Positions 3,582 through 4,316 of a stretch of 6,885 bases of DNA are shown one piece after another. Below the pieces are notes generated by a model that saw only the letters and a program-made list of their open reading frames with translations, searched no databases and was not told the DNA's origin. Origin of the DNA: a virus (Duplodnaviria; Heunggongvirae; Uroviricota; Caudoviricetes); the IMG/VR virus record IMGVR_UViG_2541047122_000022; one strand, written 5' to 3'. A program made the position numbers and the translations under genes. Positions within the stretch are counted from its first letter, which is position 1. Each line of letters opens with the position of its first letter.

Positions 3582-4316
3582 ATGGAGACTGTTTTTGACG
3601 CACTGAAAGCGATGGGAAAAGCCACGTCGGTATAGCTGGCTGCGCGACTTGATATCAGTCGTGAAGAAGTACTGAACGAGCTGTGGGAACTGAAAAAGGC
3701 TGGCTTCGTTGATAAAAGCGTATACACCTGGCGTGTGGCTGATAACAACGTTCAGCAGGAACAGCCAGCGCCAGAAGAAACCACCACGGCAACAGAAGCG
3801 AAAATCTCAGAGTGCGATTTAACCGCGACGATTGAACAACGCGGACCACAAACGGCGGATGAACTGGCTACGCTGTTCGGTACAACATCCCGCAAAGTTG
3901 CTTCAACGCTGGCAATGGCAATCAGCAAAGGTCGTCTGATTCGCGTAAACCAGAACGGTAAAATTCGTTACTGCATACCAGGTGATAATTTACCAGCAGA
4001 GCCGAAAGTTGAATCGGTAGCGGAAACCGATGGTAAAGCCTTTCCTCAGCCAGCCGGTGTTGCGTTACCGGTACAGAAAGATGCAACACAGGAAGATATT
4101 AAAACAGAAACTGTGGCGGACATTGTGCAGTCGCTGCCATCGTTTACTGCAACGCGAGAAGATGATTTGATTTTGCCATCGCTGCATATGGCAAATCGCG
4201 AACTGCGTAGGGCGAAGAATCATGTCCAGAAGTGGGAGCGAGTCTGCGCCGCGCTGCGGGAGCTGAACAAGCACCGGGATATGGTTGCCGGGATTTGTCG
4301 GAAGTCCGGGCAATGA
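3582..4316 (+). pseudogene. Two-winged-helix-domain protein gene interrupted by an in-frame amber (TAG) codon at 3633-3635; intact it would encode about 244 aa
   Basis: ATG 3582 with an excellent RBS (GGGAGGAAATTT-ATG). Reading frame: [58 protein letters not shown]..., continuous with track ORF 3735..4316, which starts at a GTG with no RBS. A second HTH-like segment is [30 protein letters not shown]. Confidence 0.55.

Follow-up and report, generated by a model that had tools for sequence, protein, structure and literature searches.

The Rac prophage of Escherichia coli K-12 carries, directly after its replication genes, a gene named ydaW, and homologues in related phage records are labeled 'putative YdaW family protein' after it. 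Full-length members of the family (PHROG 630) have a layout of tandem winged helices followed by a C-terminal helical part, and K-12 ydaW, with 561 nt (186 codons), is shorter than these. In the window, i.e., the whole 6,885-nt stretch of phage DNA analyzed here (IMG/VR record IMGVR_UViG_2541047122_000022), a gene of the same family occupies the same site; unlike its YdaW/PHROG 630 relatives it is interrupted by an amber codon at residue 18. Lambdoid phages with amber mutations are well known from the laboratory, for example lambda Oam29, Pam80, and Sam7. The window gene resembles them in that one sense codon has been changed to TAG, which would leave it without a product in a host that lacks a suppressor tRNA, and it differs from them in its natural origin, in the non-essential nature of the gene, in its location in a defective prophage, and in natural hosts that are not supE. 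The closest intact counterparts are the orthologues in O55:H7 and in O145:H28 PPompW prophages (WP_000450692.1; BCI48946.1), which have GAG at codon 18 where the window has TAG and encode 244 aa; their neighbors are the same as in the window (O, P, a small ORF, a broken fimbrial gene, paa, and hokD). The comparisons described below make it very probable that the DUF1627/YdaW gene in the early right operon of an E. coli O157:H7 defective PPompW prophage has been nullified by a lineage-specific Glu18-to-amber mutation.

For the Pfam and PHROG searches we used the translation with the TAG replaced by the ancestral GAG codon. Residues 84-236 match positions 1-153 of the 155 in Pfam DUF1627 (PF07789) with 308.7 bits against a cut-off of 28.1 (E = 8.4e-93), and residues 1-242 match positions 1-249 of the 253 in PHROG 630 (E = 6.7e-123), the N-terminal winged helix included. 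By these profile matches the gene is a member of the DUF1627/YdaW family, a small one with 176 clusters (50% identity) at E <= 0.001. The first-pass annotation knew of no function for the protein: a family name does exist, and no member of the family has a demonstrated function. The map position is the same in every context examined, immediately after the replication genes: the gene follows a lambda-type P in the window, O157, O55:H7, O145:H28, and Salmonella, and the DnaC-like YdaV in Rac (K-12), Rac-SA53, and vB_EcoS-683R6. Compared with the Salmonella copy, the gene as a whole has a dN/dS of 0.40 and the second winged helix one of 0.125 (for the N-terminal domain the ratio is uninformative, the first 53 codons being nucleotide-identical); these values agree with the protein being functional in intact phages. 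The same Salmonella enterica contig copy (6001-6747), aligned with window positions 3582-4316, has a dS of 0.25 in the C-terminal third, and this contrast with the identical codons 1-53 suggests an intragenic recombination breakpoint.

The features of the interrupted gene and of two other ORFs are listed in Table 1. The protein architecture was taken from an AlphaFold2 model, based on a 43-sequence alignment with a 244-aa intact relative (two residues different) as the query. The mean pLDDT is 82 and reaches 94-98 in both winged helix-turn-helix (wHTH) domains. The two wHTH-like segments and the acidic linker proposed earlier from the letters alone are all present in the model, together with a third module of C-terminal helices (residues ~178-243). 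Residues 4-46 of the first domain match Pfam HTH_20 (PF12840) with 25.9 bits, below the gathering cut-off of 27. The acidic linker varies within the family in both length and sequence. The C-terminal module matches phrog_29124 and phrog_1888, and there are short proteins (118-143 aa; P0132, P0149, P0152, P0187, and P0203) that share only this module (residues ~168-240) with the DUF1627 proteins; it seems to be an independent unit joined to various N-terminal domains.

Table 1. Coordinates of the interrupted DUF1627/YdaW-family gene, its domains, and other ORFs in the window
Feature	Position	Strand	Remarks
DicA-like repressor	839-1246	minus	
Shine-Dalgarno GGGAGG	3570..3575	+	serves ATG 3582, spacer 6 nt
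DUF1627/YdaW-family gene, codons 1-17	3582..3632	+	METVFDALKAMGKATSV; helix 1 and start of helix 2 of wHTH1
Amber TAG, codon 18	3633..3635	+	ancestral GAG (Glu18); one G-to-T transversion at 3633
Rest of gene	3636..4316	+	226 codons and TGA 4314-4316; frame open, unchanged
wHTH1, residues 1-53	3582..3740	+	ArsR/MarR-like; H4-11, H16-23, H27-40, E43-46, E49-52
Acidic disordered linker, residues 54-74	3741..3803	+	pLDDT 46-66
wHTH2, residues 75-133	3804..3980	+	start of Pfam DUF1627 region
Second disordered linker, residues 134-177	3981..4112	+	pLDDT 51-79; poorly conserved
C-terminal helical module, residues 178-244	4113..4313	+	long helices 201-230 and 232-243; conserved
54-aa ORF	4313..4477	+	ATG overlaps DUF1627 stop as ATGA; hypothetical protein WP_001505071.1

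A sequence search of the PDB returned nothing beyond the winged helix (best match MntR, E = 0.51), the NCBIfam search gave only sub-threshold ArsR/MntR-type HTH matches, and the PADLOC search gave only weak matches to the wHTH of Csa3/CARF proteins. In Foldseek comparisons with the PDB and BFVD, the tandem winged-helix proteins found were generic ones only (ScpB, ESCRT-II, and the SelB C-terminus, TM 0.2-0.3); single-domain ArsR/MarR-type regulators were also matched, with an rmsd of about 1-2.5 A over 55-64 columns. The top PDB matches are ScpB-type proteins (3w6j_E, E = 3.4e-4; 2z99), which have two consecutive winged helices in common with the DUF1627 protein. With TM scores in that range and an rmsd >11 A, the two are alike in architecture only and have no sequence relationship, and no kleisin partner is found near the DUF1627 gene. 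Another system for comparison is lambda ren, which is dispensable for growth. It maps directly after P, as the DUF1627 gene does, and both encode small winged-helix-like early proteins. The wHTH2 domain shows weak matches to Ren-like PHROGs (phrog_142, E = 1.5e-3, with no stretch passing alone), hhalign against lambda Ren gives a probability of 23%, and BLASTP against lambda Ren detects no relationship (E = 3.4). Ren, a single-domain protein of 96 aa, is no more than a candidate homologue of the DUF1627 protein. The sole functional hint found comes from an overexpression screen in which K-12 ydaW was among the prophage genes that block the retron-Sen2 toxin RcaT (bioRxiv 10.1101/2020.06.22.160242); the family may thus interact with host defense systems. 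The intact product is probably an early protein with an accessory role, binding DNA or protein.

The start of the gene is well defined. The sequence across 3570-3584 reads GGGAGGAAATTT-ATG, with a predicted anti-SD duplex of -10.3 kcal/mol for ATG 3582, in keeping with the strong RBS described at first reading, and the GGGAGG motif upstream of the ATG is exact in 61 of 83 related loci and near-exact in the remaining ones. The amber codon does lie inside the first HTH, as had been stated: in the AlphaFold2 model codon 18 falls in helix 2 of wHTH1. Only codons 1-17 (METVFDALKAMGKATSV) can be translated from this gene in the TAG allele. Past the TAG the frame is open as reported, for 226 codons and not for about 227. 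The chance of 226 open codons is ~2e-5, calculated from (61/64)^226; this figure is irrelevant, since homology spans the full gene length. The GTG at 3735 indeed lacks an RBS (anti-SD duplex -1.5 kcal/mol), but it had been called the only in-frame start downstream and is merely the first canonical one, ATG 3915 being in frame further on.

In the PGAP annotation of O157:H7 genomes the locus appears differently. A CDS of 226 aa is called at 3636-4316 with a CTG start right after the TAG, named 'DUF1627 domain-containing protein' (WP_077744273.1), and carries no pseudogene flag. Taken at face value, this call would support a locus of two elements, a 17-codon leader peptide and a separately initiated protein (from CTG 3636 or GTG 3735), and the first-pass annotation had named orthologues that all start downstream of the TAG as the observation in favor of such an arrangement. 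The orthologues turned out to run through codon 18 from the upstream Met: the start is at the same Met in 35 of 43 distant homologues, an ATG is at the same place in 73 of the 74 GAG-allele loci, and 66 of 68 complete ORFs among the latter encode 244-256 aa. Moreover, neither CTG 3636 (-3.0 kcal/mol) nor GTG 3735 has an SD sequence, against -10.3 kcal/mol for the upstream ATG. Of wHTH1, a product initiated at 3636 would have lost helix 1 and some of helix 2, and one initiated at 3735 would retain nothing. A two-element organization is therefore most unlikely, and we regard the CTG-start CDS WP_077744273.1 as an annotation artefact. The practical consequence is that the PGAP call hides the defect, so that pseudogene counts and pan-genome tables miss this broken gene.

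The ancestral state of codon 18 was deduced from close and distant relatives. Between the window and the PPompW phage records of O145:H28, 901 nt around the gene contain a single base difference, and in the alignment with LC567818 this base is the first position of codon 18, GAG against TAG in the window. O55:H7 strain RM12579, which belongs to the lineage ancestral to O157:H7 (PMC8112680), carries the gene as an uninterrupted CDS of 244 aa, within the same prophage context and order of genes. In an alignment of 43 full-length distant family members (21-66% identity), residue 18 is Glu in 37 and Gln in one, and L8, M11, K13, A14, and A20 close to it are near-invariant. When 143 fetched loci with identical flanks were examined, codon 18 was GAG in 74, GAA in 60, and TAG in 9; the presence of both GAG and GAA indicates that Glu has been retained through synonymous variation. 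Judged by these alignments, the ancestral codon is GAG (Glu) and not CAG, and a single step leads from GAG to TAG. The CAG-to-TAG origin put forward earlier is thus wrong.

The spread of the TAG allele was determined among complete E. coli records with exact 71-mers centered on codon 18. The TAG 71-mer is present in 293 records and the GAG 71-mer in 311, the latter including O55:H7 (an exact match), O145, and O111. Among the records listed, carriers of the TAG allele are O157 wherever a serotype is stated, including the atypical strain PV15-279. TAG is also found in 7 IMG/VR contigs, and the rest of the gene is identical to the window in all 7. One of the explanations offered at first reading was a sequencing error. 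The difference from the intact allele is one base, as such an error would require; but 293 complete assemblies, made independently by many laboratories and on many platforms, have the identical TAG, as do the 7 IMG/VR contigs. This recurrence excludes an error of sequencing or of assembly, which is practically inconceivable as the origin of the TAG. The alternative of a very recent nonsense mutation proved right: the O145:H28 stretch of 901 nt, otherwise identical, has GAG, and the O55:H7 gene is intact. With TAG in the listed O157 records and GAG in O55:H7, the mutation postdates the O55:H7/O157:H7 split. The G/T difference at 3633 of the window serves as a clean marker: it sets the listed O157 records apart from O55:H7 and from other carriers of the same prophage outside O157.

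It had also been suggested that the gene is expressed only in amber-suppressor hosts, in which supE would restore Gln. Such a conditional gene, its amber codon read by a suppressor tRNA of the host or of a co-resident phage so that the protein is made naturally, would fit the perfectly kept downstream frame, and the single family member with Gln at position 18 means that Gln of the supE type might be tolerated. The ancestral codon was GAG, though, and the insertion of Gln by supE would not restore the original Glu. There are 155 complete records with an exact match to the supE44 allele of glnV, and the 60 carriers listed are all K-12 laboratory strains, e.g., C600, DH5alpha, and DH1. Set against the 293 records with TAG, this number leaves at least 138 TAG carriers without supE44, and no tRNA gene was found in the window. 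From the ancestral codon, the supE44 comparison, and the tRNA scan of the window, natural suppression is scarcely credible as an explanation. In the test for programmed readthrough, the stop at codon 18 was seen in one allele only, with Glu codons at the other loci of the 143-locus census; a stop that is not conserved in other lineages does not support programmed readthrough.

The observations can be put together as follows. A G-to-T transversion at 3633 would have turned GAG, the codon of the conserved Glu18, into an amber TAG and created a null allele. Ribosomes that start at ATG 3582 would release a 17-residue peptide, and with no usable RBS-linked start past the TAG, essentially no functional protein would be expected. 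Translation of the 54-codon ORF, which by the overlap of its start with the DUF1627 stop is probably coupled to that of the DUF1627 gene and hence affected by the amber codon upstream, would probably be reduced too. The mutation would have arisen after the O157:H7/O55:H7 split and reached high frequency along with the clone. Nakamura et al. judged all the PPompW prophages that they analyzed to be defective (PMC8112680). With the prophage already defective, the amber change was most likely neutral, and since neighboring genes have decayed as well, a neutral clonal mutation is the simplest reading. None of the data contradict the null-allele explanation, and a trace of product could still be made by near-cognate UAG readthrough or reinitiation. 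The lack of further decay in the 226 downstream codons fits a recent event, and equally neutrality or a retained use.

We also considered whether the allele spread by selection, the loss or down-tuning of the product (by leaky readthrough) having benefited the O157:H7 host or stabilized the prophage. The allele is in every O157 record listed, PV15-279 among them, the remainder of the gene is unchanged, and K-12 ydaW blocked RcaT in the screen cited above (bioRxiv 10.1101/2020.06.22.160242). On the other side, the O157:H7 clone is young and hands on any early mutation to all its descendants, the neighbors have decayed too (the frameshift in the fimbrial gene and, in some strains, an IS in O), and stops at codon 18 do not recur independently elsewhere in the 143-locus census. 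Selection in place of drift is for these reasons very unlikely. There is likewise only a small chance that DUF1627/YdaW is a counter-defense or replication-accessory factor whose amber codon was selected to tame PPompW or to leave a trace of readthrough product; were selection the true cause, the TAG allele would be functionally meaningful beyond simple decay. We favor neutral loss, with the amber codon as an ordinary sign of decay within a defective prophage and not a special coding mechanism. As such it carries little biological weight, being another decayed gene in a prophage already described as defective. The DUF1627 family, a widespread lambdoid early gene, may deserve study, for which a broken copy is a poor starting point.

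The window corresponds to the early region of a lambdoid prophage, of the 'PPompW' type in which paa and hokD are also present. The DicA-like repressor is followed in order by a Cro/DicC-like gene, a YdaT-like gene, an O-like gene, a lambda-P-like gene, the DUF1627 gene, the 54-codon ORF, the broken fimbrial gene, paa, and hok/sok, which is the order annotated in near-identical stretches of O157:H7 chromosomes and O145:H28 PPompW prophages. Sakai prophages Sp6 and Sp9, which have a lambda-type loader and a repressor without a peptidase domain, still excise spontaneously (Asadulghani et al., PMC2669165); if the window prophage is Sp6 or Sp9, the DUF1627 gene is dispensable for excision. A hairpin followed by TTTGTTT at 3523-3548, at the end of the P gene and just before the DUF1627 RBS, is terminator-like, and in the promoter/terminator scan such sites were no commoner than in shuffled sequence. 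The window has no end-to-end 100% match among complete E. coli genomes, the best being 99.1%. The O/P junction (2839-3344) has ~20 clustered differences and a 3-bp indel, with a 220-aa P-frame ORF from 2886, and the right end (6521-6885) is without the ~430-bp rem region and has 86-88% identity to O157 references. From these differences the window looks like a recombinant (mosaic) prophage variant. In some strains O contains an insertion of the IS1203 family. The 54-codon ORF encodes a hypothetical protein in O157 and O55:H7, and Salmonella and Rac-type phages have a DUF977/LygF gene in its place. The fimbrial-protein gene (4482-5015) is frameshifted with an internal stop according to RefSeq, in O157:H7 and O55:H7 alike, and its decay is older than the amber mutation. 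Further to the right, paa (5176-5934) is intact and encodes the AcfC-family adhesin Paa/AdfO, a virulence-associated moron in the early-right region. It is followed by a hok/sok type I toxin-antitoxin locus (6123-6425), in which Rfam sok matches 6123-6272 with 103.9 bits, a mok-like upstream extension begins at 6213, and the hokD ORF ends at 6425.
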